A stretch of 63,639 bases of DNA, filler included, from Chrysochromulina tobinii (Eukaryota), in the NCBI GenBank assembly GCA_001275005.1. It is 8 parts of 8 records of this genome, joined end to end, with 100 filler letters (N's around TTAATTAATTAA, not from the genome) between each part and the next. Parts side by side here need not be neighbours in the genome. Positions count along the whole stretch, not along the records: positions 28,162 to 44,326 come from JWZX01000114.1; 7 more parts are not named here. The stretch is one strand, 5' to 3'. Shown here piece by piece: positions 28,162 to 50,400 of this stretch. The number at the start of each line of letters is the position of its first letter. The first letter of the stretch is position 1. The position numbers and the translations under genes were made by a program. The notes below the pieces were generated by a model. That model had not been told where the DNA came from. It searched no databases and worked only from the letters and a program-made list of their open reading frames with translations.

Positions 28162-30903
28162 GGCGGCGACGGCGTCGGCAGCGGCGACGGCGGCGGCGGC
28201 GGCGGCGGCAGCGACGGCGGCGGCAGCGACGGCGGTGGTCGCGAGCGTCCCTAATTTGGCAATGGCGAGCGTCCACGACGGCGAGGTCGCGGCTGAGGCG
28301 ATCTGCGACGGCGAGGTCGCGGCAGATGCGATCTGCGCGAACCGTCGGCGCTGTGCCACGTCACCACCGAGCGCCCACGAGCGCATCGCATAGTCCGTCA
28401 GCGGCATGCCAAACCAGGCCAGCATGCGCCCCGCGCCGAACCCATGCTCAATCTCGTTCAAGTGGAGCGTCGCGAGAGTATTCTCCGCACCTGGTCATTA
28501 GAGGTCATTAGAGGTCATTAGAGGTCATTAGAGGTCATTAGAGGTCATTAGAGGTCATTAGAGTATTCTCCGCACCGGGTTTGGGCCAGCGGATGAAAAA
28601 GTCCGCACGGAACGCAGAGGAGCCCAGCGCCGTCGCGAGCACGCGCAGCGTCGCGCGCACCTGATGAGGGAGGCAATCAAGAGCGGCCGTCAAGAGCCAT
28701 CGGGAGCGCCGTCACGAGCGCGCGCAGCGTCGCACGCACCACCTCAACGACGGTCCGCCCCAGCAATCAATTCGCAATCAATTCGCAATCCATTCGCAAT
28801 CCATTCGCAATCCATTCGCAATCCATTCGCAATCAAGTCGCACGCACCACCTCTACGACAGTCCGCCCCAGCGCATCGCCCGCGACGACGCTCTCGAGCA
28901 CCATGGACGTGTGGCGCGCGCGCGCCGGTGGGCTGTGAACGTCGTGATTTGCATGTGTGAACGTCGTGATTTGCAGGAGGGCGGTGTGAGGTGTGAGGTC
29001 GGGCACAGCACTCAATGTCGGTGTGAAGGCGGTGTGAAGGCGGGTGTGAGGTCGGGCACAGCGAATCCATGGCACTCAATGACACTCAAAAAGCATACAT
29101 AGGGCATTCAATGGCACTCAACGGCAAGCACCTGTGCACGTGCGCGTTACATGAGGGCGGTGTGAAGTCGGACACGGCCACCAGAGCCTCATGTCCCTCG
29201 AGCAACAGCAGCCGCTCCATGCAGTTGGTGCGTGCCGCGAGCACCTACACGCGCGCGCCGTCATCAGAGGTCATCAAAAGTCATCAGAGGCCATCAGAGG
29301 TCATCAGAGATCATCATAAGTCATCAGAAGTCATCAGAGGTCATCAGAGATCATCAGAAGTCATCAGAGATCATCAGAAGTCATCAGAGATCATCAGAAG
29401 TCATCAGAGGTCATCAGAAGTCATCAGAAGTCATCAGAGGTCATCAGAGATCATCAGAAGTCATCAGAGGGGAGCACCTGCACGCGCCCGCCGTTGATGC
29501 AGAGCACTGCGAGTTCCTGATCATATGGCACCTGACCCTCAATGATGAGCGTGCGGGAGCCGCCCGCGGCAGCGCGACCCGACTTGAAGATGGACTCGGC
29601 CTGCGTGAGGATGAGCTCCTCGAACCAACGGGCGCGGCTCACCTGCCAAGCTCAGATGGGCCTGCATCATTAGGATGACCTGCATCATTAGGATGAGCTC
29701 TGCGAACCAACGGGCGCGGCGCACCTCACGCACTGACGCATCACCCGCGCTGAGAGCCTTCACGGGCGCATAGGCCCACAAGGAGCCATTCGAGAGGTTG
29801 GGAGGGTTGGCAAGACGAGGCCTGGGCTCGCCGCTCGGCATTGGTACGAACCGAAGCGGCTCGATCTGGTCGAGGCTCAGGCAGAGCAGAGGTCATTAGA
29901 GGCAATTAGAAGCCATCAGTGGTCATCAGTGGTCATCAGTGGTCATCACACCTGGTCGAGGCTCAGGCAGAGCAGGCCGCCGCTGTTGGTACCCATCGTG
30001 GGCTTGAGGACAAGGCGCTTGTGGTGGCGCAGGAGCACCTAAATGTCCGCAGAGGCCATCAGGGGCACTTCAAAGGCCGCAGAGGCCATCAGGGGCACTT
30101 AAAAGGCCGCAGAGGCCATCAGGGGCGCTTCAAAGTCCGCAGAGGCCATCAGCGGCGCAGCGAGGGGATAATGGCAAGGCGCCGTGGCGAGCGACTCGTA
30201 ACCGCCGCCGCCGCCGCCGCCGCTGAGCATCGTGCTGCTGGCGCCCATGCCGAGGGTGTCGCTAGCCGTTGTGGGTACAGATGCGATCGGGCTGGTACGC
30301 TTCTTCGACTTAACGGGGAGGCGATAGTCATCAGAGGTCATCAGGAGGGGAACACACCTCCAGTCGCAGCTCACAGCACGGGTCTGAGGGCGCGAGGAGC
30401 GTGCGGGAGGTCGTCAGAACGGGCACGTACTGCCCGTCGTCGTCCACCGCAAAGTCGGCCTCCGCGCCCACGTCGACGCCACCCATCGGGTCGTCGACGA
30501 AGGAGCACGTGTGCAGAGTCGGTACGATGAGCGCGATCGGCACTCCCAGCCCCACCCAGTGCTCCTTGCGCAGCGCCTTGTCGTCCGACCAAGCCCCCGC
30601 ATCGCACCGGAAGGACGCTCGCTTCTGGGCCGCGTGAAAGCATCCAATCAGCTGGGACAGAGAGCTCGCGTAATTGGCTCCTTCCGCGCTGCTCGGCCCC
30701 TTCCACGACGCATCAGCCAGCCCAAACAGCAGGCTATGGCGGTTGGCGCAAAGGTCTTCCTCGAATTGGTCCGCGACCGTTTTCGGCGACGCAGCGCCGT
30801 CAATGAATATGTCTTGGTACATGTTCGAGTGTTGCCCAGCGGGCGCGCGCGCACACCTGCACTTCGCCCACCGTCTCGTGTGGGACCTTCCCGATCGGGA
30901 CAT
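28162..30903 (-). CDS. Intron-rich ATP-grasp-fold protein, 3'-truncated; not seen as a single ORF
   Basis: Splicing introns 29866-29951, 29643-29724, 29245-29477, 28933-29131, 28661-28847 and 28491-28575 gives RLVLKPTMGTNSGGL…LIIEGQVPYDQELAVLCINGG…FRADFFIRW…LHLNEIE, the ATP-grasp motif order (KPxxG; ExxxxxE; RxD; NE). Structure between 30039 and 30357 is unresolved. Confidence 0.7.
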
Positions 30904-31061
30904 GTTGCAGATTTCCAGATTTATCAAGTTCGAGTTCCGATGAAGTTAGCGCGCTCTGTCGAGGCTTTACGGTTAACAACTTTCGGCCCATCAGTCAGTT
31001 GGTGAAGCTCTGTAGTCTCGCATCCCGAAACAAACTATGCGCGTTGTTATGAGCGTTGACG

Positions 31062-32476
31062 ATGCATCCCGCCGTGGACGTCCGGCTCGGGCAGCTGCGC
31101 TGGGCCGCGTTGCATGTGCATCCCGCATTCGACGCCGATCATCCGAATTGGGACGAAGCCAACTGCTCGGGACTGTTGCTCACGCACGTGGCCGTGCCGA
31201 CGGCCATCCAGCCCATCTGGCACGGCTCCACCACGGGTTCGCTCCGGCGGTTGCTCCAACCGTGCCGCCGCGCGTGCTCCCTCGGCCAGGTCGGCTGCAC
31301 CACTCGGCAAGGGAGCGTGATCGGACGTTGCAATGCGACACACGGCGTCGAGTACGCCCACCGTCTCCCGCGGCCGGGCGAGCCGGCCGTTGTGAGCTTC
31401 AACATGCCATCGTCGAAGCACGTTGAGGCCGTGCTTGCAGCGATCGCGGACGCGCGACCGCGGTTGTACTTTGAGTTTGAGGCGGCAGGGCACGCGCGCG
31501 TGCCACGAGATACCATCCTCAAGGGCGTCGATGGCATGATGTCGTTTCAGCGCGATGCGCTCGTGCCGTACCCGTACTTGAGCGCCTCGCAGCTTTGGGA
31601 AACCTCGCTGCGCCGTCCAGAGCGTGGGTTTCATGAGCGCCGACCCGCCGTGGCCGCATTCGTGTCCAACTGTGGCTCCCGGTATCGCAACGAGGTGGTC
31701 GAATTCTTACGAAACGCGTCGATCGAGGTCCACTCATACGGCGCGTGCTACCGGCCACGCCGCGCGCAGCAGGACGGAGGTGCCAACAGCTCCACGTTTG
31801 ACGCTCGCGAGTTCCGCAAGTCTCAGGGCTTTGAGTCTGGGGTGAAGCCCGAATGCTTGCACTATCGCGCGATCCTTGCGGTGGAGAACTCGGCGTGCAC
31901 GGACTACGTGACCGAGAAGCTCATACAGGTGGTCGGGTGCGGGGCGGTGCCGATCGTACGCACAGTTAATGGGCTGCCGGATTACAACGGCCTGTACGGC
32001 AGGTTCCCCATGCTGGATGGAGCACGTCTTGATGCAGCCTTTGCATCCTCCGTGCGCCAAGTGCTGACGGACCAGCGCACCTTTGAGAGCTACATGCCGT
32101 GGCACACTCGGACGTGGGTGCCCAGCCACGAGGTCATCGTCCAAAAGGACATGCGGAACCCGCACTGCACGCTACTTGATCTTATCACCAAGAGTCGCGA
32201 GACGTCGGGGGCTCTGTCGCCCTCGCACCTCGCGTCGGACGCACCAGGTGTGTCCTCTGATGACCCCTTGAGGCCCTCATCATCACCCTTTGTTGACCCC
32301 TTGATTACCCTTTATGACCGCAACGCCTCGCGTCCGTTTCACCAGGTGGCGGCGGAAGGTGTGAGACGGGCTCCAAGATGCACACACCACGGCCCCAGCA
32401 AAGGTTTGCACGCTCGTTTGCGGGTGGCTCCTACGCGACAGCGGAAGAGGTTGCGCGGAATGGCTCGCTCGGGTGA
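31062..32476 (+). CDS. Alpha-1,3/4-fucosyltransferase (glycosyltransferase family 10)
   Basis: AAFVSNC, VHSYGAC and YRAILAVENSACTDYVTEKL…GAVPIV. A probable intron at 32248-32345 moves the stop to 32476; the unspliced ORF ends at 32570. Confidence 0.85.
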
Positions 32477-32957
32477 AAGGGAGAAAAAGGGACGCGGATT
32501 AATCAATAAAATCATTAATCAACATACGAGCGGAAGGAGCGGTACACAAGTACCTCTAAGGTACCTCTAAACAAGCGGCTCTCGAGTTCTTTACGCGTAG
32601 CCAGCCTAAAAAGGGGGAGAGTGGTCGGAGAAGAGGAGATGTATCGCCCAGCCCGCTCCCAAGAAACGGACTCCGAACGGCCAAACTTGCGAAGGCGCCA
32701 ATGGCCAAATGCGAAGGCCGAAGCTTGCCGCGCGTTCACGCTCCCCAACAACGTGAAACGCCGCTCGATCGTCATCGTGAAGAGCGCCCATGGGCCGCCC
32801 ATGCTGAAAATGTCAACTCATGACCTCTAATGACCTCTAATGACCTCTAATGACCTCATAAATGACCTCTAATGACCACTAATGACCTCTACTGACGCCC
32901 ATGGGCCTTCATGGGCCGCCCATGCTGAAAGGGTGGGCGCCTCTGGTGCGTTATCCG

Positions 32958-33818
32958 TCACCGTCGGGGGTGGCTGCCCGAAGCCTTTCCATGCGGCGGC
33001 GGTCCGACGCCCGCTACGACGCCCGGGGCGGCCTGTTGGTCACCTGCGGCGGCGGCCTGTTTACCGGAGGATTTACCGGAGGATTTACCGGAGGATTTAC
33101 CTGAGGATAGGTCAGCATCAGCATCCGCCGCACCGCTGAGCATCCGCTTACGCAGCGCCATGAGCGCCAAGGCGACGACCACATCGGCAAATTCGACGGA
33201 CTCGCGGTGCGACTGCGTCGACTCCGCCGCCTCGGCCGACGCAGCTTGCAGCAAGGGATCCACCAAGTCACGCAAGTGGCGGCGCTCGACCGGCAGCGCG
33301 AAGGGTGGTGCGCCCAGCACGGCGCCCGTCGCCCTGACGACGAGGCGCGCGCGCCAGAGTTCCATCAAGAGGAATTGGACGGCAGCGCCCAGCGCGCGCG
33401 CGCACTTGCCTTGCTCGCGCGTCCAAAACGCTTGGAAGAAACCCTCGACGGTGTGGCATCGTTTGGATGACGAGACGCCCACGGGCTGGAGGTATGCCTG
33501 CAGCGCCGGTCGCAGCAAGAGGTGGCGGCGCTCGAATGTTTGCACCATCCACGAGGACGCCTCCTTCCAAGGCTGCTCGGCTGATGGCGGCGGTGGTGAG
33601 TCGGATAGGCGATGCTTCCGCTGGCTCGGCCGGTGCCGTGGCCCACTGCTGCTGTGGACGATGGGCTCCGAAACAAAGAATTCGCGAGCAGGCAGAGGCG
33701 GCGGAGGTGGCGGCAGCGGTGGCGGTAACTCGTGGCCGCCCTCGAGTGGTGGGAGGTCTAAGTCGTCGACCCTCGCGTCGGCATGGAGGTCGACGAGCGC
33801 TTTGCGTTTCATAACCAT
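32958..33818 (-). CDS. Hypothetical protein
   Basis: 286-aa ORF with a globular-looking core (WMVQTFERRHLLLRPALQAYL…FFQAFW…). Probable 57-nt in-frame intron at 33044-33100. Confidence 0.55.
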   Translation of the reverse strand: MVMKRKALVDLHADARVDDLDLPPLEGGHELPPPLPPPPPPLPAREFFVSEPIVHSSSGPRHRPSQRKHRLSDSPPPPSAEQPWKEASSWMVQTFERRHLLLRPALQAYLQPVGVSSSKRCHTVEGFFQAFWTREQGKCARALGAAVQFLLMELWRARLVVRATGAVLGAPPFALPVERRHLRDLVDPLLQAASAEAAESTQSHRESVEFADVVVALALMALRKRMLSGAADADADLSSGKSSGKSSGKSSGKQAAAAGDQQAAPGVVAGVGPPPHGKASGSHPRR

Positions 33819-34071
33819 GCTGAATTCCTATCCGCGCATTCCGCAGAAAACGCTTCCTCGCGCGCTGTTGGTGACACACACGACGTTGGACAGTCGACAT
33901 TTATCTGTCGTCTAGATGCACATGAATTCGGAGCACATGTGTGGGGCTTCAGAGCTTCGCAAACCTTACTTGAGTCCTTGACACAATCACGGACGGGGAA
34001 CACCACGATCGGGTCAGCGAGCGGCTCGGCCAGCACATCACAATCACCGCCGACGCGGAGAGAAGTGCACA

Positions 34072-37000
34072 ATGTCACTGGCGCTCGCGTTCGTGCTCGT
34101 CGCCCTCGGCCAGTCGTGCACCGACCGCTCGAACGAGTGTGGCACATGGGCGGCCCTTGGCAAGTGCTCCAAGGATCGGAGCCACATGTCCAAGGAGTGT
34201 CCCTACTCGTGCAAAACGTCGTGCGGTGGCAAGGGCGCGGCGCTGGTGGCTGCGATTGCGCTCGAGCCGGTGCCGAAGGCCGACCAGTATAGACAGCTGG
34301 GCGACATTTACGCGATCGAAGGCAAGATGGTGGCGTCCGAGCAGGCGCTGCGCCTGGCCACCGAGATCGCACCCACCGACAGCGAGATCCAACGGCTTCT
34401 CGGCACGGTCGTGAAGCGATTGGGCGACGCCGAGGGAGCGCTCGCTTTGTTCCGCAAGGCTGTGCAGCTCAACCATTCGAACGCATGGGCGCACGTCAAC
34501 ATCGGCAACGCGCTCACTCCGGGCGATGAGTGCTTCGCAGCGTACCGCGAGGCCATCCGTGTCGACCCGACCATGACGAACGCGTACATCAGCCTGGGCG
34601 ATAAGCTCCTCATGGGAGGCCGCGCGGAGGAGGGCTTCGCGACCCTACGCTCCCTCGCGGCCTTCTCGGCGCAGCATGATCCCGGCCGTCTCTACGAGAA
34701 GCTCGCCGAACACCAAAGGGTCGTCGAGGCTGCCTACGCCCAGACCCTCGCTGACGCCAGGCGCGGCCCCCAGACCTCTGCAGTGGCTCGCAATTGGATC
34801 GAGTACACGCGAGAGGCGCTAGGCGACGACAAGTGCCGCAACCCGCGCACTCGGATGGAGTGTGAAGAGAAGTGCCTGACGCCCGCATGCATTGAAGGAC
34901 TCGAAGAGGCGCTTCAACATGTCACCACCCATGTGCGCGTGGACGAAGCGCCGCATGGCGAGGAGTACATGTATGTACCGCCGCTCTGACGACCTCTGAC
35001 GACCTCTGCCGACGATCTGATGAGCTCTGATGAGCTCTGATGAGCTCTGATGAGCTCTGATGAGCTCTGATGACCTCTGCCAAGCTCTGATGAGCTCTGA
35101 CGGAGCGTACGTGTATGCACCGCCGCCACTGATGAGCTCTGATTGCGACGGATGAGCCCTTGATTGCGTCCTTCATCAGGTATCGCGTCATCGGCCAGTC
35201 CGAGAGCCAACCTTCCCTGATTGCGACTGATGACCCTTGATTGCCGCCTTCATCAGGTATCGCATCATCGGCCAGTCCGAGAGGCAACCTTCCCGTGCGC
35301 CGCTTGAGCCGGCGGTTCTCAAAGGAGCCGTTGATGAGGCGTGGGCGCCGTACCGGTGGAGCGCTTCGTCTCGGGCGCTCACCGAGGCAGCGGGCGAGGA
35401 CGAAGTCAAAGTGACGGTGACACAGCGCGGCAAGTTTGAGGTGTGAATAGATTAGATGAGCCCTTGATTGCCGCCCTCATCAGGTGTCGGAGAACGCAAC
35501 CACTCGAGCTCATCTCCATTCCCTGATTGCAACTGATGACCCTTGATTGCGTCCTCCATCAGGTGTCGGAGAACGCAATCACGCGAGCTCCGACGAGCTC
35601 CATTCGCGTCGCGGATCTGGTCGCGCTGCTTCACTCGAAGCGCACGCTCAATACGACGCTCTACACGCGCCAGGTTCGTCAATTGCATGCTGATCGGCCG
35701 CCCCTGCGATGGATGGCCTCTCGCCTTGCATGCTGATGGCCTCCCTGATTGCATGCTGATGGCCTCTCGCCTTGCATGCTGATGGCCTCCCTGATTGCAT
35801 GCTGATGGCCTCTCGCCGTGCATGCTGATGGCGCGCCCTGTGCTCAACACGACGCTTCGTCCAACCCTTATTTGCAGGCAACTCTCGACATGATGCCGCG
35901 CTTGCTTTCGACGGTGGCGTCCACGCCGTGGCTGGCGAACTTGCGACTGCAGGCGAGCCTGATTGCATCCCTCATTGCGAGCCTGAGTGCATCCCTCATT
36001 GCATGCTGATTGCGCTCCAGCATCGTCGGCTAGTTGCATGCTGATGGCCTCCCTCATTGCATGCTGACACATGGTTGCATGCTGGCACCGCAGACCATCA
36101 CCATGTGGCTGGGCGACGGCCATTTCCACAACACGCTCCACAACGACCCATGGGACAATTTCCTCTGCCAGCTCCAAGGCACGCAACGGATGACCTTAGA
36201 TGACCTCTGATGACCTCTGATGACCTCTGATGACCTCTGATGACCTCTGATGACCTCTGATGACCTCTGATGACCTCTGATGACCTCTGCCAGCTCAAAG
36301 GTACTCTGCTCGGGCCGCCCGCGTGCGAGTGCTCACCACGGCCCACTTACCCCACACAGGTACGAAACACGTACTGCTCTGGCCGCCCGATGCGCGCCCT
36401 CTCCTGTATTATGCCAAGCGCCAAAATACGTTCGCCGAGTACGCGCCCTCGACGGGGGAGAAGCGGCACCGTCGTGTCATCGAGACTGACAACACCGCCG
36501 GAGTCAACATCGCCAAGGTCGCCTTTGCACAGATGGCCTCTGATCGCCTCTGATGGCCTCTGATCGCCTCTGATCGCCTCTGATGGCCTCTGATGGCCTC
36601 TGATCGCCTCTGATCGCCTCTGATTGCCTCTGATGGCCTCTGATGGCCTCTGATCGCCTCTGATCGCCTCTGAGTCCCTCTGATCGCCTCTGATGACCTC
36701 TGATTGCCTCTGATCACCTCTGATGGCCGACTGAAGGCAGTTGCCGCTCTTTCGGCACGCCTTCACATGCCAGTGCTCATCACGGCGCCCTGTCCCGCAG
36801 GTCGACTTTGGACAGTTCCCGCTCTTTCGGGACGCTTTGAAGCAGATGCGGTACGCGAAGCTCGAGCGCGGCGACTGCTTCTTCCTCCCTCGCGGCTGGC
36901 ACCACGTCGTCTTCTCCGTGGTGGGGACGCCGGCGAATTTCAATTTGGCGATCAACTTCTGGTTCAATCGCGAAGCTACCCTCAAGGGCGCGAAAGAGGG

Positions 37001-37175
37001 CGCGGACGCAGCGCAGGCCAAGGTGGGAGCGGGCGGCGCCTTGAAGCGCATCCAGGCACGGGAGGGGTTCACATTCACACTGGATGAGCTTCACAGCGCC
37101 CTCGCCGAAGCGAGAGCGGAGGGGCAAGCGTGCGCCGCGGGGGAGGCTGGAGCGGTGGAGGCGGAGCGACCCTAA
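34072..37175 (+). CDS. Secreted ShKT + TPR + JmjC/cupin 2-oxoglutarate/Fe(II) dioxygenase
   Basis: Signal peptide MSLALAFVLVALG; ShKT CTDRSNECGTWAALGKC…MSKECPYSCKTSC; TPR helices. After removing introns 34971-35256, 35441-35562, 35674-35877, 35953-36093, 36179-36359 and 36518-36800 the C-terminus reads MWLG…TLHNDPWDNFLCQLQGTKHVLLWPP…LERGDCFFLPRGWHHVV…NLAINFWF (HxD…H triad). Confidence 0.85.
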
Positions 37176-37598
37176 CTTGGGAGGAGGCGAGCTTTGACTC
37201 TCGAGCCCTAATTAGGCGAGTGGGCTTCTCCGCGATGGCTGCGAGACGGATGCTCATTTGATAGGCCATGGAGTCAGACCTGGGTAGTAACCAAGGGGCT
37301 GCGGCTAGCCAGCTTGCCAGGGCGCTCTAGCCAAGGGACTAGCCACTTGGCGGCACTGAGGCCTGTCGCCTGAGTGACTTGGCGCATGGCCAATTGCGCA
37401 TGGCGGCACACTGAGGCGTGAGGGATTCTTCTGTCTTGTCTTTTTATGGACTTGTAGTCAATGGGTTTTGGATCGTGAAGAGAAAGGCGAGGGCAGGTTT
37501 ACCCGCGCCTTCCTTCGTCTACTCTACGGTGGTTCTTCACAGATGTGACTTCACACCAGAGATGACATGAGTCTCGTCTGTTCCAGTTATTGGCTGAG

Positions 37599-38790
37599 AT
37601 GTCGCCGCCCAGCCTGAAGGCTGAGGCCTTCCCCCCGCCCGTGCTCGACGCCATGCGCAAGCTCGACACGAAGAGCAACGAGCCCAGCCTCATTCGCCAG
37701 CTATACGTGCTGGCGCTGCTCAACCGCGACGAAGCGATGCGGCGGATGCACTTCGGGCTACCACCCGACGTGGTGCTCGCGCAGCAGCCACCCTCGCTGC
37801 TCGCGCTCGCGCGCCCGCCGGCACCCTCCAGCTTCCAGTCGGCCGGCTTTCACCTTAAGCCGTCCACGTCCACGGGAGTGCGCCCTCGGCGCAGCCGCGT
37901 CTTCGGCGCGATGAGCGGCGCGGCCGAGAAGGGCGCCGACGCCGTCCAGGCCATCAGCGCGGCCCGCGAGCGCGCGATCCCGCACTTTCCGCCCGGGTAC
38001 GGCGTGCCGCCCATCGGCCACGAGCGTGTGTCGACCCGCGCGCAAACCGCCGACCCGTTCTCGTCGTCAGCGCCCACACGCGCGCCCACGTTCACAGCGC
38101 CCACATCGGCATCAGCGTCCGGGCTCCACTCCACTCCACTCCACTCCACGTCTCCGAGCGCCCTTCTCGCTCGACCGCCGCTGCGCCCCGCCGACCTCGA
38201 GAATGCGTACCCCGTGCGCCTGAGCCTCTATGAGCCGCCGTCGCCCGAGCACCGATTGGGAGCCTCATCAGGCAGAGGGAAGCCCAGGCTGCCCACCATG
38301 GCGCTACCGGTACGCGAGCTGCTCGCCACGCCTCCGATGCGAGCTCCGACGCTCCCAGCATGCAAGTGCTCATCACGGCGCCCTGCTCTCCCCACAGGTA
38401 CGCGAGCTGCTCGCCACGCCTCCGATGCGAGCTCCGACGCCCGGCAAGACGCCTCTCGTCGGGTACGCGAGCTACGCCTCCCTCGCGTCTCTCGAGGCCG
38501 CCGCGAGTGAGAGCGCCGCCGTGGGCGCCGGCCGGCCGATGGCCTCGCTCAGCCAGGAGCAGCGCCAGCAGTTGAGCGGCAGCGGCGGCGGCGCCGGTCG
38601 CGCGGGCTTCTCCTTTGGCGGCGCGTCGACGGCTCCTAATATGGGTGGCGCGCAGAAGCCGAGCTTCGACGCGTGGGCGGCGGCCGAGGAGGACCTCAAG
38701 TATCGAGCTGAGCAGGAGACGCGACGGGAGGAGATGCGCACTGTGAAGACCTCGATCGGCCGTGATGACGTGGGCACGATCGGCTTCTGA
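37599..38790 (+). CDS. Hypothetical low-complexity protein with one 88-nt intron
   Basis: ORFs 37590-38510 and 38230-38790 join via intron 38310-38397 (MALP|VRELLATPPMRAPTPGK). Confidence 0.65.
38310..38397 (+). other. Minimal, apparently young intron: 43-nt perfect copy of the downstream exon plus a 45-nt acceptor cassette
   Basis: GTACGCGAGCTGCTCGCCACGCCTCCGATGCGAGCTCCGACGC + TCCCAGCATGCAAGTGCTCATCACGGCGCCCTGCTCTCCCCACAG, followed by the identical 43-mer. Confidence 0.85.
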
Positions 38791-39157
38791 CGAAACTACC
38801 AGATCGCGTGATCTCAAAGCGTCTGAGGTGATGCCGTGGCATCCTTGGATGGCGGTGAATGTGATGTGTGTCACTGTCAACTGTCTTAAATCATATAACC
38901 GCAAACTCAATTGCTCAAACTCTGTCTGTGATTTCGGAACATACAGGTTACAGCACAACCGTCGCCCTTCTAAACCGCCCCCGTGCGGTACCCGCCATGG
39001 TGGTACAGTGTCTGTGTCTGTGTGAATGTGCGTCTGTGTGATTTCTTAACACAGCCGTCCCATCGGGAATGCCGCGAGTTTGGAGTTTGCAAGTTTGTGA
39101 CGCCGCGCAGCGCGAAGAAATCGCGACAGGGGCTCGACGCGACCGCGCTCGAGGCTT

Positions 39158-40250
39158 ATGAAGAACTTCTTTGGCGGCGCGAAAGGGCAAGAGGGCTACG
39201 CCACGTACAAAGAGCCGCCCAAGCCCAAAGCTGCAGCACCGGCACCGGCCGTGCCACCGCCACGTCCGTCCGCGCCAATCACCGCAGAAAAGGTAAAGTC
39301 GCCCTTCGCATACCCTCCAGCAGCCGGCGCCGCCGAACCGTCGGGGTTGGACTCTTGGACGCCGCCCGCGCCCGCGCCCGCGCCCGCGCCTGCGCCCGCG
39401 CCCGCAGCCGATCCGCAGATGGAGAAGGCCATCGCCGCGCAAGCGGAGATGCGAAAGCTTCGTCACATGAACGAAGCGGGGCCAGCGCATCGGCGGCTTG
39501 GGGAGGCGCATCCCGAGTTGCATCCGCAGCGGCTGCAGACAGAGCGTGAGATCCTTGCGGATCTGGAGGCCGAGATCCTCGATCGAGAGTGCCTGGAGAG
39601 CGAGGCTGCGAACGCCAAAGTGGAGTACGAGAACGAGCTGCGCGATCTTCTGGCCGAGGCCGCAGCCGCTTTTGAGGCGTTGCGTGCGCAGCTGCCACCT
39701 GGGGCGCTGCCCGATCCGGCGCCTACACCCGCCGTCACACCCGCCATGCCCGCCGCAGCGCCGGCCGCACCGCCTGACCTTCTCCGCGGCTTGGGCGCTC
39801 AGTACGACGCCCCGACCGCGACTCCGGTGCTCGGGACAGCGCCTCCGGCTGCGGCGGCTCCGCTCGGAGATATGTTCGGAGATATGTTCGGAGATTTGCT
39901 GGGCGGCGGCATGGGCGGCGGCATGGGTGGGGGCATGGGCGGCGGCATGCCCGGCGGCATGGGCGGCGGCATGGGCGGTGGCACTGGTGGCGGCATGGGA
40001 GGTGGCATGGGTGGTGGCGTGGGTGGGGGCTTCGGTGGAGGTTGGGGTGGTATGGCAGGCGCTGAGATGGGCGGCATGGGTGCTTCTATGGGCGGCATGG
40101 GTGGCGGCATGGGCGGCGGCACTTGTGCTATGCCGACGGCGCCCCTCCTTTCGGATCTCTTTGCAAGCGAAACGCAACCCTTCGCGACGCCCGCCACGGC
40201 GCCTTTGCCCACAACTGCGCCCGCTCGAGCGCCTCCATTGGCGGCGTCGA

Positions 40251-40284
<34 letters not shown>

Positions 40285-43200
40285 GGTGGACAGTGACGAT
40301 CCATTCGCAGGGCTCTTCTCCGGCATAGCGCCGCCGCCGGCTACGTCACCGTCGGTCCCGCGGCGAATCTCGTTAGACCGTCCCGCGAGTAGCAGCAGCG
40401 GCACTGGCGGGCTCGATCCAAATTTGGAAAGTCGGGCCGATCTCATCGCACCTACCAAATTTGGGTCAGAGATGGTCGTCAGTCGGTCGGAGGAGGCACA
40501 TACGATCACGTGTGTCGAGCAGATGGCGCCGGCGGCGCAGGTACCGACCTACCTTCCCAAGATCCCGTCCGTCCGTGCCGCGTCCCCCTTGCGACTGCAT
40601 GCATGTGCTCACCACGGCGCGTCCTCTTCCCCACAGGAGGCCATCCGAATGCTCCAAAAGGGGTGTCAGGCTCTCAAGTTTGGCAGGCAGGGCAAGCCTC
40701 ACTCGGTGCGGCGCTGCGTCCACTGAGTGCGACTGAGTGCGACTGAGTGCGACTGAGCGCGTCCGCGTGCGTTGCATGCTGATTGCCTCCCCCATTGCAT
40801 GCTGATTGCCTCCCTCATTGCATGCTGATTACCTCCCCCATTGCATGCTGATTACCTCCCTCATTGCATGCTGATTGCCTCACCCATTGCATGCAGGTGC
40901 TCTTCCGCCTGTCCGAGGACCTCCAGACGTTATCCTCATTGCATGCTGATTGCCTCCCCCATTGCATGCAGGTGCTCTTCCGCCTGTCCGAGGACCTCCA
41001 GACGTTATCCTGGGAGAAGAAGGGCCTGCAGGGTCTCGGCAAGGACATGGCGATGGGTTTCGGCAAGATGATGGGGGGTGGGTTCGCGAAGAGCGCCGAC
41101 ACGGCGCGCCGAGTCGACCTGAGTACTTTGGTGGAGGTGCTGCAGGTGCGTGCTAGCCTTGATGGCGTCTGATGGCGCACGATGGCGTCTGATGGCGTCT
41201 GATGGCGTCTGATGGCGTCTGATGGCGCCTGAGTGCGTCTCTCATCAACTGCTCGTCGTGCTTCAGGGCCCTGAGAGCAATGTCATTCGACGCAACCGCG
41301 GCGAGAAGCCGATTTCGTCCGCGGACGCGGGTGGCGGCACGGTGGAGGGCGACTACTCGTCATACAAGGAGGCCAAGGAGAACTTGTGCCTCTCGCTGCT
41401 CTTCGTGAGCAACGAGAAGGATGCAGACCGTGACTCGCTCGATATCCAGTGAGAGAGCGACGAGGGCTTTGCATGATGATTGCATGCTGATTGCATGCTG
41501 ATTGCATACTGATTGCATGCTGATTGCATCTTTGAGCACATGCTGATTGCACCCTTCATCAGGTGCGAGAGCGACGAAGCATTCATCAGCTGGGTCGTGG
41601 GGTTCCAAGCCCTCATGGCGCTGCATGAGGCGCTGAGCGGTGGGTTCGATGCGCTCTCGAGCGTGCTGCATGCTGATTGCATGCTGATTGCATGCTGATT
41701 GCATGCTGATTGCATGCTGATTGCATGCTGATTGCATGCATGCTGAGCGGTGGGTTCGATGCGCTCTCGAGCGTGCTCTCTGAGTGCATGCTGATTGCAT
41801 CTCTGAGGACGTGCTGATGGCCCCCTTCATCAGGTGGGGCTGAGGGGCTTGCGAGTGTCCGTGTCGAGCGCGAGGCCGCCCGTGCGCGGGCCCTCGCGCG
41901 GAGTGCGCCGCAGGTACGCAACTGATGACCTCTGATGACCTCTGATGACCTCTGATGACCTCTGAGGACCTCTGAGGACCTCTGAGGACCTCTGAGGACC
42001 TCTGAGGACCTCTGAGGACCTCTGAGGACCTCTGAGGACCTCTGATGACCTCTGATGGCCTCTGATGGCCTCTGATGGCCTCTGATGACCTCTGATGACC
42101 TCTGATGACCTCTGATGACCTCTGATGACCTCTGATGGCCTCTAATGACCTCTGATGACCTCTAATGACCTCTGATGACCTCTGATGGCCTCTAATGACC
42201 TCTGATGACCTCTGATGACCTCTGATGACCTCTGATGACCTCTGATGACCTCTGATGACGTACGCGGGCCTCGCTCGGAATGCGCCGCAGCTCTACCAAG
42301 CGATGCTGGAGCGCGAGGAGAAGCAGATGCAGCAGATGATGCGAGAGGCTGAAGAGGAAGCCAACCGGCAGTATGAGGCCTCGCGTGCGCGCGCAGAAGC
42401 GGCGGATCGTCAAGCTTTCGAAGCGAGGGTGAATGCCACTGATGACATCTGATTGCATCTGATTGCATCTGATTGCATCCCTCATCAGGTGCGTCGCGAG
42501 GCAGAGGACCTCTACTTTCCTCTTGATCGCCTTTGATGACCTCCTGATTGCCTCCCTCATCAGGTGCGTCGCGAGGCAGAGGACCAGGCGAACGCGCTGC
42601 TCGAGGCTGCTCGTAAGGAGGCTGAGCTTGCGCCGTTAGCAGGCGTCTTCGAAGGGCAGAGGTACTAAGTGCCACTGATGACGTCTGATTGCATCTGATT
42701 GCATCCCTCATCAGGTGCGTCTTCGAAGGGCAGAGGTACTAAGGAGGTTGATTGCCATCTGAGTGCATCGGATGGCCTCTGATGGCCTCTGATGGCCTCC
42801 CTCATCAGGTACCGGATGTCCGCTGATGTCCTCTGATGGATGTCCTCTGATGGCCTCTGATGACCTCTGATGACCTCTGATGACCTCCCTCATCGACTGA
42901 TGGCCTCTGATGGCATGCTGATTGCCTCCCTCATCAGGTACTATGGAGGCGGCTCAATGCCCCTCGGGCTGCCTGATCCCTTCTCTCCAGGCCTCTCGTC
43001 CGCAATGGCGGCGGCGGCGGCGGCGATGGCGGCGGGAGATCCGTCCGCCATGATGGCTCTCCGCGCGAGATTAGCCGAGGTTGAGGAGGAGAACCGACGG
43101 TTACGCGCCAATGGCGGCGGGCGGCGTGGGGGGGGCGGCGGCGTCGAAGAGGAAGAAGACGAGCAGGTTGTGCTCGATCGCAAGTGCTTCGAGGCGTATG

Positions 43201-44326
43201 AGGCCGCCCGCGTCGCGATGATGGCGACGCTCGAGGCTGGCAAGTTCCCCACAGCCGCCGAGTACGCAGAGCGTGATCTGATGAGCTCTGATGGCCTCTT
43301 AATCAAGTCTGATGATGAGTTCTGATGATGATCTCTGATGATCTCTGATGACCTCTAGTGACCTCTAGTGACCTCTGATGACCTCCCTCATCAGGTATGC
43401 GGCGCGTGATCTGCACCTGTACCGGCTCTCGGATGCGGACCTCCAAGCGGAATATGCGCGCTACACGGTAACTCCGCGGATGAGCTCTGATGACCTCTGA
43501 TGACCTCTGATGAGCTCTGATGACCTCTGACGACGTCCCTCATCAGGCGCTGTACCTCGCGGACGAGACGAAATCCATCGTGCGCGGGATGGCGGAGATG
43601 ACGGTCATCAAGCTTGGGGAGATGGTCGACAAGCCGCAGGCGAAGCGCATTCAGATGATGGCGCGGCAGGTAAGCGAGGGCCCTCTAATGGACCCCTGAT
43701 TGCACTCTGATGGACCCCTGATTGCCCTCTGATGGCGCGGCAGGTAAGCGATGGCCCTCTAATGGACCCCTGATTGCACTCTAATGGACCCCTGATTGCC
43801 CTCTGATGGCGCGGCAGGTAAGCGATTGCACTCTAATGGACCCCTGATTGCCCTCTGATGGCGCGGCAGGTAAGCGAGGGCCCGGGAGAGGACCCTTTGG
43901 TGACCCCTCTGATGGCCTCTCTGATGGCCCTCTGATGGACCTCTGATGGACCCCTGATTGCACTCTGATTGCACGCTGCTGAGTGCGACCGATTGCGCGA
44001 CTCATCAGGTGATGGAGGCGCGGCTTATGTCGCCCTGATGACGCTCTAATGACGCCCTGATGACACCCCGACGGCGCCCTGATGACGCCCTGATTGCCTC
44101 CCTCATCAGGTGGAGGAGGCGCGGCTTGCGAATGAGGCTCGCGAGAGGGAGCTCGCCGAAGGCGCGGCGGCGCGCGAGAAGCGTGCAGCGCTCGATGCGA
44201 TGAACCGCAGGGCATACGATGCATGCGTACCGGTATGGAAGGAGCTCAAGGCGCGCGCCGTGGCGGGCGTCGTGGCGGGTGCCGACGGCGGCGGCGGCGG
44301 GGGCGGGGGCGGCGGCGGCGGCGGGG
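39158..44326 (+). CDS. Large coiled-coil / GGGM-repeat / PH-domain protein, 3'-truncated, ~11 introns
   Basis: Spliced PH domain of PLC/PRAF type: MLQKGCQALKFGRQGKPHS|VLFRLSEDLQTLSW…RRVDLSTLVEVLQ|GPES…LSLLF…SLDIQ|CESDEAFISWVVGFQAL. Introns: 40541-40636, 40706-40971, 41146-41266, 41449-41562, 41640-41833, 41914-42290, 42429-42563, 42662-42937, 43262-43394, 43468-43546, 43670-44109. Confidence 0.78.
41922..42258 (+). repeat. Intronic 10-nt tandem array (CTGATGACCT / CTGAGGACCT / CTGATGGCCT / CTAATGACCT), about 33 copies
   Basis: Directly visible. Related arrays occur at 24485-24652, 28494-28560(-), 29260-29470(-), 35017-35100, 36190-36288, 36535-36725, 43275-43385 and elsewhere. Confidence 0.95.
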
Positions 44327-44426: not shown

Positions 44427-47400
44427 GAACTGCTGAGCCCAAGAGGCGATGGCTGCGGAGCCCGAAAAGCGAAGGCTGCTGAGCCCGAGAGGCCATAGCT
44501 GCTGAGCCCGAGACGCCGAGAGGCGATAGCTGCTGAGCCCGAGAGGCGATAGCTGCTGAGCTCGAGGGGCGAGAGCTGCTGAGCCCGAGAGGCGATGGCT
44601 GCGGAGCCCGAGGGGCGAAGGCTGCTGAGCCCGAGAGGCGATGGCTGCGGAGCCCGAGGGGCGAAGGCTGCTGAGCCCGAGAGGCGATAGCTGAGCCCGA
44701 GACGCCGAGAGGCGATAGCTGCTGAGCCCGAGAGGAGATAGCTGCTGAGCCTGAGAGGCGATAGCTGCTGAGCCCGAGAGGCGATGGCTGTGGAGCCCGA
44801 GGGGTGATGGCTGCGGGGCCCGAGTGGCGATAGCTGCGGAGCCCGAGAGGCGATAGCTGCTGAGCCCGAGAGGCGATAGCTGCGGAGCCCGAGAGGCGAT
44901 AGCTGCAACGCCCGTGCTAGCTGCTGAGCCCGAGGGGCGATAGCACCTGCTGAGCCTATGCTGAGCCCGAGATGCAATAGCTGCTGAGCCCGAAAGGCGA
45001 CAGCTGTGCTGAGTCCAAGAGGCGATAGCTGTTTAGCCCGAGAGGCGATAGTTGCTGAGCCCGAGAGGCGATAGCTGCTGAGCTCAAGGGGCGAGAGCTG
45101 CTGAGCCCGAGAGGCGATGGCTGCGGAGCCCGAAAGGCGAAGCTGCAGAGCCCGAGAGGCGATAGCTGTAGAGCGTGAGTGGCGACAGCTGCGGAGCCCG
45201 AGAGGCGATAGATGCTGGGCCTGCGAGGCGCTAGCTGCGGAACCCGAGAGGCGACAGCCGCGGAGCCCGGAGGCGATAGCTGTTTAGCCCGAGAGGCGAT
45301 AGCTGCTGTGCTCGAAAAGCGATAGCTGCTGAGCCTGAGAGGCGATAGCTGCTGAGCCTGAGAGGCGATAGCTGCTGAGCCTGAGAGGCGATAGCTGCTG
45401 AGCCCGAGAGGCGATAGCTGCTGAGCCCGAGAGGCGATAGCTGCTGAGCCCGAGAGGCAATAGTTGCTGAGCCCAAGAGGCGCTAGCTGCTGGGTCTGAG
45501 AGGCGCTAGCTGCGGCGCCCGAGAGGTAACAGCTGATGAGCCCGGGAGGTGATAGCTGCTGAGCCCGAGTGGCGATAGCTGATGAGCTCGAGAGGCGATA
45601 GCTGCGGAGCCCGAGAGGCGATAGCTGAGCCCGAGAGGCGACAGCCGCTGAGCCCGAGAGGCGATAGCTGCGGGGCCCGAGAGGCGATAGCTGCTGAGCC
45701 CAGAGGCGTGAGCTGATGAGCCCGCGAGAGGCGTGAGCTGATGAGCCCGAGAGGCAATGAGCTGATGAGCCCGAGGGGCAATGAGCTGATGAGCCTGAGA
45801 GGCAATGAGCTGATGAGCCCGAGAGGCACTGAGCCTGAGAGGCAATGGCTGAGCCAGCAGAAGATAAGAGGTGAGAGCTGAGCCAGCAGAAGATAAAGTC
45901 CCGCTGAGCCGGCCGAAGATAATGTCCCAACCGAGGGGCAATGAGCTGATGAGCCCGAGAGGGCCCGAGAGGCAATGAGCTGATGAGCCCGAGAGGCAAT
46001 GAGCCTGAGAGGAAATAGCTGAGCCAGCAGAAGGTAAGAGGTGAGAGCTGAGCCAGCAGAAGATAAAGTCCCGCTGAGCCGGAAGAAGATAATGTCCCAA
46101 ATCCCTGTTTTGGGTAGGGTGGGTGGGTAATCAGTCAACTGCCGAACCCTGATGCGCTATGCGAGGCTGCTGGGTAGTCAAGGCTGTCGTCCCATTGGCC
46201 GTCAACGAAGAGGAGCCTAGACAGGCTCGGTCAAGGGCGGGCGGCATGGCTGAGCCCGAGAGGCAACAGCTATTGCTGAGCCCAAGAGGCTTAGCTGCGG
46301 AGCCCCGAGGAGCGCTAGCTGCGCAGCCCAAAAGGTACTAGTTGCAGAGGCTGAGAGGCAATAGCTGCGGAGCCCGAGGGGGCGATAGCTGCGGAGCCCG
46401 AGATGCGGTAGCTGCGGAGCCCAAGAGGCGGTAGCTGCGGAGCCCGAGAGGCGGTAGCTGCGGGGCCCAAGTGGTGCTAGCTGCGGAGCCCGAGAGACGC
46501 TAGCTGCGGAGCCCGAGAGGCCCGGTAACTGCGGTGCCCGAGAGGCGGTAGCCCGAGAGGCGCTAGCTGCGGAGCCCAAAAGGCCCGGTAACTGCGGAGC
46601 CCGAGAGGCGGTAGCTGCGGAGCCCGAGAGGCGATAGCTGCGGAGCCCGAGAGGCGATAGCTGCTGAGCCCGAGGGGTGGTTGCTGCTGAGCCCGAGGGC
46701 GGTAGCTGCGGAGCCTGAGGGGCGGTAGCTGCGGAGCCCGAGAAGCGATAGCTGCGGAGCCCGATTGCAAAGCCCGAGAGGTGAAGCTGCAGAGCCCGAG
46801 AGGCGACCGAGAGGCGATAGATGCCGGGTCTGCGAGGCGCTAGCTGCGGAACCCGAGAGGCGATAGCTGCGGAGCCCGGAGGCGATAGCTGTTCAGCCCG
46901 AGAGGTGATAGCTGCTGTGCTCGAAAAGCGATAGCTGCTGAGCCTGAGAGGCGATAGCTGCTGAGCCTGAGAGGCGATAGCTGCTGAGCCTGAGAGGCGA
47001 TAGCTGCTGAGCCCGAGAGGCAATAGTTGCTGAGCCCAAGAGGCGTTAGCTGCTGGGTCTGAGAGGCGCTAGCTGCGGCGCCCGAGAGGTAACAGCTGAT
47101 GAGCCCGAGAGGCGATAGCTGCTGAGCCTGAGTGGCGATAGCTGATGAGCTCGAGAGGCGATAGCTGTGGAGCCCGAGAGGCGATAGCTGAGCCCGAGAG
47201 GCGACAGCTGCTGAGCTCGAGAGGCGGTAGCTGTGGGGCTTGAGAGGCAGTAGCTGCGGAGCTCGAGAGGTGATAGATGCGGAGCCCGAGAGGCGGTCGC
47301 GAGTGGCGATAGCTGCGGAGCCCGAGAGGCAATAGATGCTGAGCCCGAGAGGCGGGGAGCCACAGAGGCGATAGCTGCGGAGCGCGAGGGGCGATAGCCG

Positions 47401-50400
47401 CGCCTTGTAGCCGCGGAGCGCTAGGGGCGATAGCTGCAGAGCGCGAGGGGCGTAGCTGAGCCCGAGAGGCGCTACCCGAGAGGCGATAGATGCCGAGCCC
47501 GAGAGGCGATAGCTGCGGAGCCCGAGAGGCGATAGCTGCGGAGCCGGAGAGGCGATAGCTGCGGAGCCCGAGAGGCGATAGCTGCGGAGCCGCGAGAGCT
47601 GATATAGGCTACGGAGCCGCGATAGCTGAGCCTGAGAGGCAATAGCTGCCAAGCCTGAGAGGAGGTAGCTGATAAGCCCAAGGGCCATAGTTGATAGCTT
47701 AACCGGAGAGGTGATTGATGCTCAGGCGCACTCAGGCTCACTCGGGCGCACTCATGAGGCAAGCTGCCAAGCCTGAGAGCCCGAGGGCAAAAGTTGATAG
47801 CTGACTCGGGCGCACTCATGAGGCAAGCTGCCAAGCCTGAGAGCCCGAGGGCAAAAGTTGATAGCTGAACCTGGGCGCACTCAGGCGCAATCGGGCGCCT
47901 TAAGGCGTCACTCAGGCATCACTCGGGCGCACTCAGGCGCACTCGGGCGCACTTAGGCGTCGCTCGGAAAAGCCTAACGCGGTCAGCGAAGGCAGCCTTA
48001 AGGCGTCACTCAGGCATCACTCGGGCGCACTCAGGCGCACTCGGGCGCACTTAGGCGTCGCTCGGAAAAGCCTAACGCGGTCAGCGAAGGCAGAAGCCAA
48101 TCGCTGTCGACCTTTGGGCGACACAGCATGGGTCCGTACGGACGCTGTGCGCTTGGTACGTGGGCTGCGAGGCAGCTCTGTCCTTTTCACGGAAAGGACG
48201 CATCAGCCGCGGGTTCTCAGGTTGGCTATGCTGGGCATCAGCTGCGGGTTCTCGGGTTGGCTGCTGGGCAGCGTGCGTGCTCAGCGCAGTGGGGCGACTC
48301 TGGTCCTTTTCAGGTTCGAGTGCTTCCGCCTTGGGCGGTGGCTCGGGCGTCGCAGCTAAGCTGCGCGCGGGCCGGAGGCTGCATAAGCTGCTAGCCAAGT
48401 GCGCATAAGCTGCGAATGGGCTGGCTCGAATTCCGATTTTTCAGGTATTCGAGTGCTGCCGTCACGTAGGGATGGCGCAGTATATCGCATGCAGCTTGGG
48501 TCAGCCAGGGACGCTGCATGCTAACCGGAGTTTGGCGGGCCTGTGAGATGCAGGCGGTGCCACAGAGTGATGCCAGGCATGGTACTCGATCGCTGTCGGG
48601 GCGCAGGGGTGAAGGCGCTTGAGGCGATCGTGTCCGTATTGACCGGCACTGTCGTATCCTCCACAGTCACCGTAGGGGGCTTGGAGAGGCTCTGTTAGAG
48701 GTGGGCGGCGGCCATCGCCTGAGCTTGGGTCAGCCAGGGACGCTGCACGCTAACCGAAGTTTTGGCGGGCCTGTGGGGCAGGCGGTGCCATGTACCAGCA
48801 CCGATAGATTGTGCGGCCGTGGTGCTCGATTGCCGTCGGGGTACGATATTGTGCAGCCGTGGTGCTCGATTGCTGTATGTGCCAAAGGCCTGAGATGCAA
48901 ATCGGGACACTGGGAGATGTGCGGGCAGCTAGCTGCGCCTCCGAGGCGATAGCTGATCCCAAGGGGCGATAGCTGCAGCTGAGCCCAAGAGGCGAAAGCT
49001 GCTGAGCCCAAGAGGCAATAGCTACTAAGCCCTATCAGCGATAGCTGCCGAACCCGAGAGGCAATAGCTGGAGGCGATAGCTGTAGCTGAGCCCCAGAGG
49101 CGTTAGCTGCTGAGCCCAAGAGGCGATAGCTGCTGAGCGTAAAGGAAATGCTGCTGAGCCTATTGAGGCAACAGCTGCTGAGCCCGTCAAGGTGATAGCT
49201 GCTGAGCCCATCAAGGAGATAGCTGCTGAGCCCATCAGGGCCATAGCTGCTGAGCCCATCAAGGCGATAGCGGCTGAACCCACCGAGGCAATAGCTGATG
49301 GACCCGTCGAGGCTATAGCTGCGGAGCCTGTCAAGGCAATAGCTGCTGAGCCCGTCGAGGGCTTTGATGAGACGTCGAGGCGAGAGCTGGCAATAGCTGT
49401 TGAGCTGCTGAGCCCGTCGAGGCGATAGCTGCCCGTCGAGGCGATAGCTGCTGAGCCCGTCGAGGCGATAGCTGCTGAGCCCGTCGAGGCGATAGCTGCT
49501 GAGCCCGTCGAGGCGACAGCTGCTGAACTGCTGAGCCCGTCGAAAGGCGATAGCTGCCGAGCGGCTGAGCTCGTTGAGGCGACAGCTGCCGAGCTGCTGA
49601 GCTCGTCAAGGTGACAGCTGCTGAGCTCGTCGAGGCGACAGCTGCTGAGCTGCTGAGCTTGTCGAGGCGACAGCTGCTGAGCAGCTGAGCCCGTCGAGGC
49701 GATAGCTGCTGAGCTGTTAAGCTCGTCGAGGCGATAGCTGTTGAGCTGCTGAGCTCGTCGAGACGATAGCTGCTGAACTGCTGAGCTCGTCGAGGAGATA
49801 GCTGCTGAGCTGCTGAGCTCGTCAAGGCGACAGCTGCTGAGCTGCTGACCCCGTCGAGGCGATGGCTGCTGAGCTGCTGACCCCGTCGAGGCGATAGCTG
49901 CTGAGCTGCGGAGCTCGTCGAGGCGATAGCTGCTGAGCTGCCGAGCTCGTCGAGGCGATAGCTGCTGAGCTGCTGACCCCGTCGAGGCGATAGCTGCTGA
50001 GCTGCTGACCCCGTCGAGGCGATAGCTGCTGAGCTGCTGAGCCCGTCGAGGCGATAGCTGCCGAGCTGCTGACCCCGTCGAGGTGATAGCTGCTGAGCTG
50101 CTGAGCTCGTCGAGGCGATAGCTGCTGAGCTGCTGAGCTCGTCGAGGCGATAGATGCTGAGATGTCGAGGCGACAGCTGGCGATAGCTGCCGAGACCGTC
50201 GAGGTGATGGCCGCTGAGCCGCTGAACCATCAAAGCGGCTGAGCTGCCGAGCCTATCGAAGCGACAGCTGCCGAGCCTATCGAAGCGACAGCTGCTGAGC
50301 CCATCGAGGCGACAGCTGCTGAGCTGCTGAGCCCGTTGAGGCGATAGCCGCTGAGCTGCTGAGCTCGTCGAGGCGATAGCTGCTGAGCTGCTGACCCCGT

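Follow-up and report, generated by a model that had tools for sequence, protein, structure and literature searches.

Stacked acceptors in short introns of Chrysochromulina tobinii: duplicated 3' splice-site modules, probably copied locally and probably skipped in favor of the last one

The DNA considered here, referred to as the window, is a stretch of 63,639 nucleotides (nt; filler included) from the alga Chrysochromulina tobinii (GCA_001275005.1), made of eight parts of eight records joined end to end, and the piece studied is its positions 28162-44326 (JWZX01000114.1), where G+C is about 62%. Six introns in two genes of this piece (genes A and C, described below) are stacks, in which one or two inner CAG acceptors precede the acceptor that adjoins the next exon and divide the intron into successive tiers. 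The stacks are real and widespread, and they probably represent duplicated 3' splice-site modules, likely derived from local DNA copying, that are skipped in favor of the last one. The initial annotation of this DNA had made recursive splicing its headline and named the skipping of decoy acceptors as an option; RNA shows stacks 4-6 removed whole, and recursive splicing is not needed for the stacks, at most serving, in our judgment improbably, as a minor side route at tiers that begin with GT. The stacks in the window are:

34971..35256, + strand: stack 1, with donor 34971, inner acceptor 35179, an exon copy at 35180-35217 (38 nt, 2 mismatches) and the true acceptor 35256
35441..35562, + strand: stack 2, with inner acceptor 35483 and an exon copy from 35484 (28 nt, 2 mismatches)
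40706..40971, + strand: stack 3, with a perfect 40-nt exon copy at 40897 and a 75-nt tandem duplication over the acceptor; also present in a second assembly
42429..42563, + strand: stack 4, with inner acceptor 42488 and a perfect 22-nt exon copy at 42489
42662..42937, + strand: stack 5, with inner acceptors 42714 and 42808 and hence three tiers
43670..44109, + strand: stack 6, with inner acceptor 44008 and an 18-nt exon copy (2 mismatches) at 44009

At these coordinates, which are those of the initial annotation, 13/13 tiers begin with GT and end with CAG, and the inner acceptors in the window are directly followed by GT in 7/7 cases, the layout of ratchet points; the stacks are 122-440 nt long, however, and their host introns are short, so the long introns of ratchet points are lacking. 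An 18-nt copy of the intron's own next exon lies inside 6/18 annotated introns compared with 0/306 cross pairings, so exon-start copies in their own intron are far beyond chance. Such next-exon copies had been described for every stack and are found in stacks 1, 2, 3, 4 and 6 but not in stack 5, where tier 2 (42715) opens with GT and a 19-nt copy of the end of the upstream exon plus its donor, and tier 3 (42809) has merely 4 nt in common with the next exon; the same stack contains a 21-nt in-frame pseudo-exon (42715-42735) with its own donor. The prediction that stopping at the first acceptor leads to premature stops stands for 6/7 inner acceptors, which give a stop within 9-20 codons, and fails for stack 3, where the retained 75-nt tier stays in frame, is stop-free and would add 25 amino acids (aa). 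The duplicated segments of stack 3 (40859-40933 and 40934-41008) are identical at 74/75 positions, the tail of tier 2 of stack 2 matches the tail of stack 1 at 42/46 nt, stack 6 has four identical donors (43670, 43744, 43818 and 43870), and a degenerate copy of the donor region can be read off the sequence of stack 1 near 35104-35130. The donors regenerated at inner acceptors are GTATCG, GTGTCG, GTGCTC, GTGCGT, GTACCG and GTGATG.

The stacks are real DNA and not an assembly slip. A locus from another assembly (L051) corresponds to window positions 39996-44326 at 99.908% identity, gapless over 4331 nt, and unitigs of DNA run X2 (42481-42582 and 43920-44110) cross tier 2 of stacks 4 and 6 with zero differences; the cross-check thus covers stacks 3-6 by the second assembly and stacks 4 and 6 also by unitigs. 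An artefact at repeat-rich introns could be entertained for a short-read assembly of minisatellite-rich DNA in which many tiers measure near 75 nt, the more so as L051 and run X2 may come from the same culture and tier number in long perfect arrays (as in locus L010, below) is less sure, but besides the second assembly and the unitigs the copies carry substitutions relative to the exons, and we give this explanation almost no credence.

Six RNA runs contain the region as contigs, and those of X11, X12 and X13 were aligned to 42262-44326; runs X17-X20 were left out, almost none of the region's words being present in them. This comparison was made at low stringency with the DNA run included, and matches to filler swamped the joint table; joins were taken from the aligned pieces. 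An 824-nt contig of X12 joins six exons with stacks 4, 5 and 6 each removed whole: stack 5 by a join 42659>42936, stack 6 by a join 43666>44107 (that is, from the first of its four identical donors to its last acceptor) and stack 4 by a join 42427>42563 that recurs in X11 and X13. Depth figures (13/69 x 5.66 = 1.07) suggest that an X11 contig, too, joins the last acceptor of stack 6, and one X13 contig that is spliced upstream reads on into stack 6 and represents partly spliced RNA. None of the pieces listed (X11-X13, 42262-44326) joins an upstream exon to an inner acceptor. Removal of whole stacks also gives an open frame in gene A (628 aa) and in gene C (979 aa to the contig end), so the statement that the whole stack must be removed for the protein agrees with the frames of both genes and with the RNA for stacks 4-6.

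In the related locus L010, a gene with a WS/DGAT domain, one donor is followed by seven near-identical acceptors 44 nt apart (tier number in such long perfect arrays is as assembled), and every acceptor is followed by an identical 14 nt that starts with GG and holds no GT or GC. RNA joins donor 9935 to the seventh acceptor in X11 and X14 (2/4 runs), no joint crosses the stack in X12 and X15, and the complete joint table for this locus has 2 joints only, to the seventh acceptor and over the next intron, with none to an inner acceptor; depth is about 5 and contigs lose rare forms, so minor use of inner sites may still occur. The RNA contigs differ from the L010 exons by 0-3 nt and therefore derive from the same organism or strain. 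Even without a zero-length-exon route, then, this spliceosome is able to arrive at the seventh of seven near-identical acceptors, and stack 6, with its use of the first of four identical donors, is the donor-side mirror of this case. Filler-like repeats also occur in reversed orientation in the first WS/DGAT exon (L010, 9360-9420), where they seem to be read in frame.

L010 belongs to a wider set of metagenome loci obtained by scanning contigs for two acceptor motifs 60-90 nt apart with the following bases left free (126 loci, 809 kb). Sources were kept in 96/127 cases, and 31 were dropped for low filler density or GC outside 0.55-0.72; deduplication left 78 single acceptors and 75 stacks, with 13/88 multi-acceptor chains unclassable, and removal of the doubtful stacks L017 and L066 left 73 stacks, although both remain in the counts of GT/GC enrichment and of mismatches. 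Selection by spacing biases tier lengths and stack frequency; outside the 60-90 nt pattern there are 10 stacks (2 from the window) versus 71 single acceptors followed by G. Across the window and the metagenome loci, GT or GC is present behind 75/121 inner acceptors and absent behind 46/121, in 22/73 stacks, and among tiers of at least 40 nt it is absent behind 27/93; in 5 stacks the inner and final contexts are identical at +1 to +5 and contain no donor. Conserved genes are among the hosts of donor-less stacks: one such stack lies in a class I tRNA synthetase gene, where the flanking exons correspond to Pfam positions 38-109 and 112-162 around two CAG/CC acceptors, and others lie in a GH2 glycosidase gene, an MCM-like gene (a weak hit) and the WS/DGAT gene. 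In the intron of a GH2 gene with four acceptors (L033, 11870-12136, oriented +), two inner acceptors are followed by a 9-nt stub and a donor copy, which are potential in-frame microexons.

The regenerated GT is neither enriched nor extra conserved at inner acceptors, with the power of this comparison limited because most copies are young: exon-copy stacks start with GT or GC in 49/55 cases and plain acceptors in 63/78 (p=0.23; the singles include some false calls), and mismatches between copy and exon number 3/110 at +1/+2 versus 9/545 at +3 to +12. Five copies have lost the GT that their exon keeps (L035 with TT, L072 with AT, L091 with GG, L095 with AT and L109 with TT). True acceptors in the window are followed by GT in 12/18 cases and by GC in 2/18, and since most exons here start with GT, a duplication over the acceptor tends to give CAG/GT; the inner CAG/GT thus appears to be a by-product of exons that mostly begin with GT. 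The exon copies behind inner acceptors measure 9-53 nt (median 25) and mostly lack a downstream donor, stacks with 5-7 acceptors persist in intact genes, and last-tier lengths modulo 3 (29/20/24 of 73) show no bias against multiples of 3. The predicted unpaired fraction is lower at inner acceptors (0.289 vs 0.362; lower in 44/70, p=0.005), a small effect.

As to where the tiers come from, the intron tails consist of branch-point-like CTGAT repeats, a short pyrimidine run and CAG, often followed by 9-53 nt of exon. A tail of about 20 nt is conserved genome-wide; only these last ~20 nt are common between copies, and the best matches are local. The tail of a tier is best matched by its own intron in 32/48 stacks (against 25 sampled others; scores 0.76 vs 0.41), and in the window the best match lies in the same or the adjacent intron for 14/17. 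An ungapped version of the tandem-duplication test explained 28/52 tiers and was replaced by a gapped version, and the overlaps at copy-filler junctions are inflated by multi-tier arrays, so they give no clean microhomology figure. Amplification extends to bare modules of 21-23 nt, to donor regions and to the ends of upstream exons. In stack 5 the tail of tier 1 plus 7 nt come from the neighboring intron (44/47 nt), and the sequence rejoins the upstream exon at a shared GCGTC, which shows what appears to be the footprint of a template switch. A search of viral contigs for the tail motif returned 0 matches, and intron ends in the window lack any long inverted repeat. In most cases the second tier has the look of a local tandem duplication over the 3' splice site, and in others its tail seems to come from the neighboring intron, so repeated insertion at the same junction, as first proposed, mostly gives way to local duplication.

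The same kind of unit also stands alone. Two introns of the window illustrate this, and a third carries an exon copy at its acceptor:

38310..38397, + strand: stand-alone unit, a predicted 88-nt intron in gene B; its donor perfectly repeats the first 43 nt of the next exon and precedes a tail of a second family, ending CCCCACAG
43262..43394, + strand: stand-alone unit with a donor formed by an older exon copy of 19 nt (3 mismatches); X12 and X13 show it spliced
41914..42290, + strand: intron that owes its acceptor to a second copy, 25 nt long, of the end of the upstream exon; CT opens the next exon, and RNA pieces begin on this 25-nt copy (42269-42281)

Among single-acceptor introns, 21/59 score an exon copy (10-47 nt) compared with 4/1162 shuffled pairs. 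On inspection by eye, three of the 21 proved to be stacks whose inner acceptor has decayed and a fourth a spurious match, which leaves about 17. In these ~17/59 single-acceptor introns and in 38310-38397, one splice site is carried by the unit and the other stems from the duplication, as in introners. Units of GT, exon copy, filler and CAG that stand alone form new-looking introns.

Several further observations concern exon copies and tails. Older exon copies (43262-43280, 41640-41665) often differ from the exon at third codon positions, a pattern that may stem from synonymous changes of the exon or from a diverged allele as template. The second intron-tail family (GTGCTCACCACGGCG..CCCCACAG-like), found beside the CATCAG family at 36320-36359, 36760-36800, 38355-38397, 40600-40636, 23300-23345 and 59280-59320, was not counted in the statistics. 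An intron at 2820-2990 (- strand) opens with a copy of the next exon and holds, in tandem, three units that each combine an exon copy with a second tail family (CATGCAA..CTCACCATGGCGCCC..); the CCCCACAG acceptor is confined to the last of them. At 36518-36800 the two tail families are layered within one intron, where 10-nt filler repeats, in an array of 200 nt that came later, seemingly interrupt an old exon copy. An intron region at 28660-28870 (- strand) contains a copy in which the upstream and downstream exon ends are already joined, which would be expected of a duplication spanning the uninterrupted exon.

Two other accounts of how the stacks are processed have to be weighed against skipping. 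In recursive splicing at GT/GC tiers, the first acceptor would be used and the resulting exon/GT junction spliced again, with donor-less stacks handled otherwise. Apart from the uniform GT behind the window's inner acceptors, this account draws on the resemblance of the regenerated donors to used donors, on tiers of 75-129 nt that are of normal intron size and whose unit also occurs as a stand-alone intron, and on the intron-centric proximity rule, by which short introns normally prefer the upstream acceptor (PMC9225289; this and the other published systems below are cited from the portions of the sources available to us). It is unlikely, for the GT shows neither enrichment nor extra conservation and has been lost from copies whose exons keep it, 46/121 inner acceptors have no donor, six donor-less CAG/GG acceptors are skipped in L010 mRNA, and no intermediate occurs among the pieces listed. 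Wasteful choice, in which inner acceptors would often be used and their stop-bearing products removed by nonsense-mediated decay, would suit the stops behind 6/7 of the window's inner acceptors and a loss invisible in steady-state RNA; it would, however, cost intact genes with 5-7-acceptor stacks most of their transcripts if choice were random, and neither the unbiased last-tier lengths nor the stop-free stack 3 favors it, so we regard it as less plausible still.

As for origin, the rival to local copying is a transposon-type introner repeatedly inserted at the same site, with the exon copy as its target-site duplication. The geometry is that of introners that bring the 3' site along and obtain their donor through the duplication (bioRxiv 10.1101/2020.10.14.339549), the ~20-nt conserved tail is common genome-wide, some tails do not match their own intron, and a retro-type route could give variable duplications. 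Against this, the duplications measure 9-53 nt rather than the fixed 3-9 nt of DNA-transposon introners (PMC9860276), the units have no defined 5' end and no common internal sequence, copies of donors, upstream exon ends and bare 21-23-nt modules are also present, and tails track neighboring introns; an inserted element is therefore doubtful, in our estimate on a par with recursion.

Local copying with skipping, the reading we prefer, could work as follows. Local DNA duplication or template switching would add extra copies of the intron 3' end: during replication or break repair, a new strand would enter the exon by a few tens of bases, slip back onto an intron tail, its own or a neighbor's, and re-enter at CAG/GT(GC) microhomology. 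At an existing acceptor such copying would yield an added tier, and at an exonic GT a new intron with the exon copy as donor. The stack would then be removed in one step, with the acceptor adjoining the real exon chosen. We infer that exon definition is the reason for this choice: an inner acceptor has only a short exon stub and more filler behind it and would stay undefined, and exon definition favors whichever site lies closest across the exon (PMC9225289). In genes A and C, real internal exons measure at least 69 nt. Downstream CTGATGA repeats may also pair with the TCATCAG of an inner acceptor, although such hairpin masking would be a minor and weak second factor. Duplicated sites with short exon pieces reportedly lost to the outer site in the work of Reed and Maniatis, which would fit.

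Several points weigh against this reading. The own intron is not the best match for 16/48 tier tails, and the tail similarity of nearby introns within loci is modest (p=0.025). Inner joints at the window's own stacks were assessed only among the rows listed, the RNA consists of low-depth contigs (depth about 2-9) in which rare forms are lost and lariats are invisible, and mature mRNA is identical after one-step, two-step or wasteful splicing. Exon definition is reached indirectly, and the folding effect is small. Finally, GT tiers resemble working stand-alone introns (~17/59), so that use of the inner acceptor would probably leave a functional regenerated donor. A broader proposal, which we hold tentatively and rate at somewhat less than even, is that a self-amplifying 3'-splice-site module spreads to neighboring introns by template switching without a transposase and makes introns with 10-50-nt exon duplications, its decoys being ignored via exon definition even in introns of 100-400 nt and re-splicing at GT tiers perhaps acting as a rescue route.

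Known systems share parts of this picture. Ratchet points (Drosophila Ubx, kuz and Bx, and mammalian recursive-splicing (RS) sites) likewise have an intronic acceptor followed by GT and a short cryptic stretch missing from the mRNA (PMC8605326), and stack 5 even has its 21-nt pseudo-exon with a donor; known ratchet points, however, lie in long introns, have conserved acceptor-donor motifs and are used constitutively (PMC8605326), whereas the stacks lie in introns of 120-440 nt with a GT that is unconserved and often missing, and the pieces listed contain no intermediate. In the 37-bp variable number tandem repeat of human F7 intron 7, a tandem repeat over a splice site also leaves identical pseudo-sites silent while the exon-adjoining site is used (PMC1557585), but this is a single donor-side mammalian locus (PMC1557585), and the stacks are mainly acceptor-side, extend over dozens of loci in a unicellular alga with short introns and give an outcome opposite to that predicted by the proximity rule. 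Introners of Symbiodinium and of Polarella classes 4/5 and 6/8/10 resemble the stacks in that the donor repeats the beginning of the next exon and the acceptor is carried by the insert, and in both systems exons tend to start with the donor dinucleotide (bioRxiv 10.1101/2020.10.14.339549). Their duplication is fixed at 4 or 8 nt (bioRxiv 10.1101/2020.10.14.339549), as dinoflagellate introners have a fixed short one (PMC9860276, PMC12130899), whereas the stacks have variable duplications of 9-53 nt, a variable minisatellite body and often a neighboring intron as source. The published Chrysochromulina sp. introner differs as well, with a 4-bp duplication and a carried 5' site (PMC9860276).

AGGT tandem genomic duplication similarly gives direct exon repeats that flank an intron and provide its donor (PMC3443670); in the stacks, by contrast, the AG comes from the added intron tail, and AG is missing from the end of many upstream exons. 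Short composite introns with inner 3' sites are also known as fungal stwintrons and complex intervening sequences; one case can be removed in one or two steps, and small duplications of splice signals have been proposed as origin (PMC7138796). Stwintrons are nested and their two-step removal is documented by reverse-transcription PCR (PMC7138796), whereas the stacks are serial units for which two steps are not required: with the outer donor and the last acceptor both intact, joining them directly yields the mRNA. No description of such stacks was found in the literature searched, mostly non-subscription papers and without introner supplements, including the available portions of the haptophyte genome papers PMC4580454 and PMC12480563, and the accessible part of PMC2115697 has no passage on duplicated sites.

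The region is covered by three genes, whose 18 introns, placed by hand, leave all frames open:

34072..37175, + strand: gene A, a ShK + TPR + Cupin_8 (JmjC-like) protein of 628 aa with 6 introns; spliced frame open, Pfam matches on single exons
37599-38790, + strand: gene B, an open frame of 367 aa
39158..44326, + strand: gene C, function unassigned, at least 979 aa with 11 introns, truncated by the contig end; RNA contigs over exons in 42281-44241

A Pfam search of genes B and C gave no family at cut-off, and a full-length homolog search with gene A gave none at E<=1e-8. Among 42 hits of one single-exon window protein, the closest that bears an organism name is Haptolina brevifila (70% identity), so the DNA most likely belongs to a prymnesiophyte haptophyte. 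In gene A, two GC donors are predicted (35953 and 36179), and the frame is open only with both. Elsewhere in the window, a contig of ~9.5 kb (44427-53934; 45401-51999 not read base by base) consists mostly of a satellite with a 23-nt unit (GAGCCCGAGAGGCGATAGCTGCT-like) and is strongly skewed in GC and AT. At the start of another contig, 740 nt of a gene occur twice in near-identical form (59213-59950 and 60188-60910), which may be an assembly artefact.

With recursion set aside as the headline, the interest lies in the fact that, among several identical acceptors in a short intron, the farthest one wins. The stacks amount to dozens of natural duplicated-splice-site experiments in a unicellular alga whose introns are short; in the cases checked by RNA, the outcome opposes the rule that the nearest acceptor wins in such introns, which makes exon versus intron definition testable beyond animals and plants. 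For annotation, an inner CAG/GT should not count as evidence of recursive splicing, and gene callers that choose the first CAG will mis-annotate such genes. Finally, the copying event seems to make new introns too, and thereby bears on intron gain without transposons.

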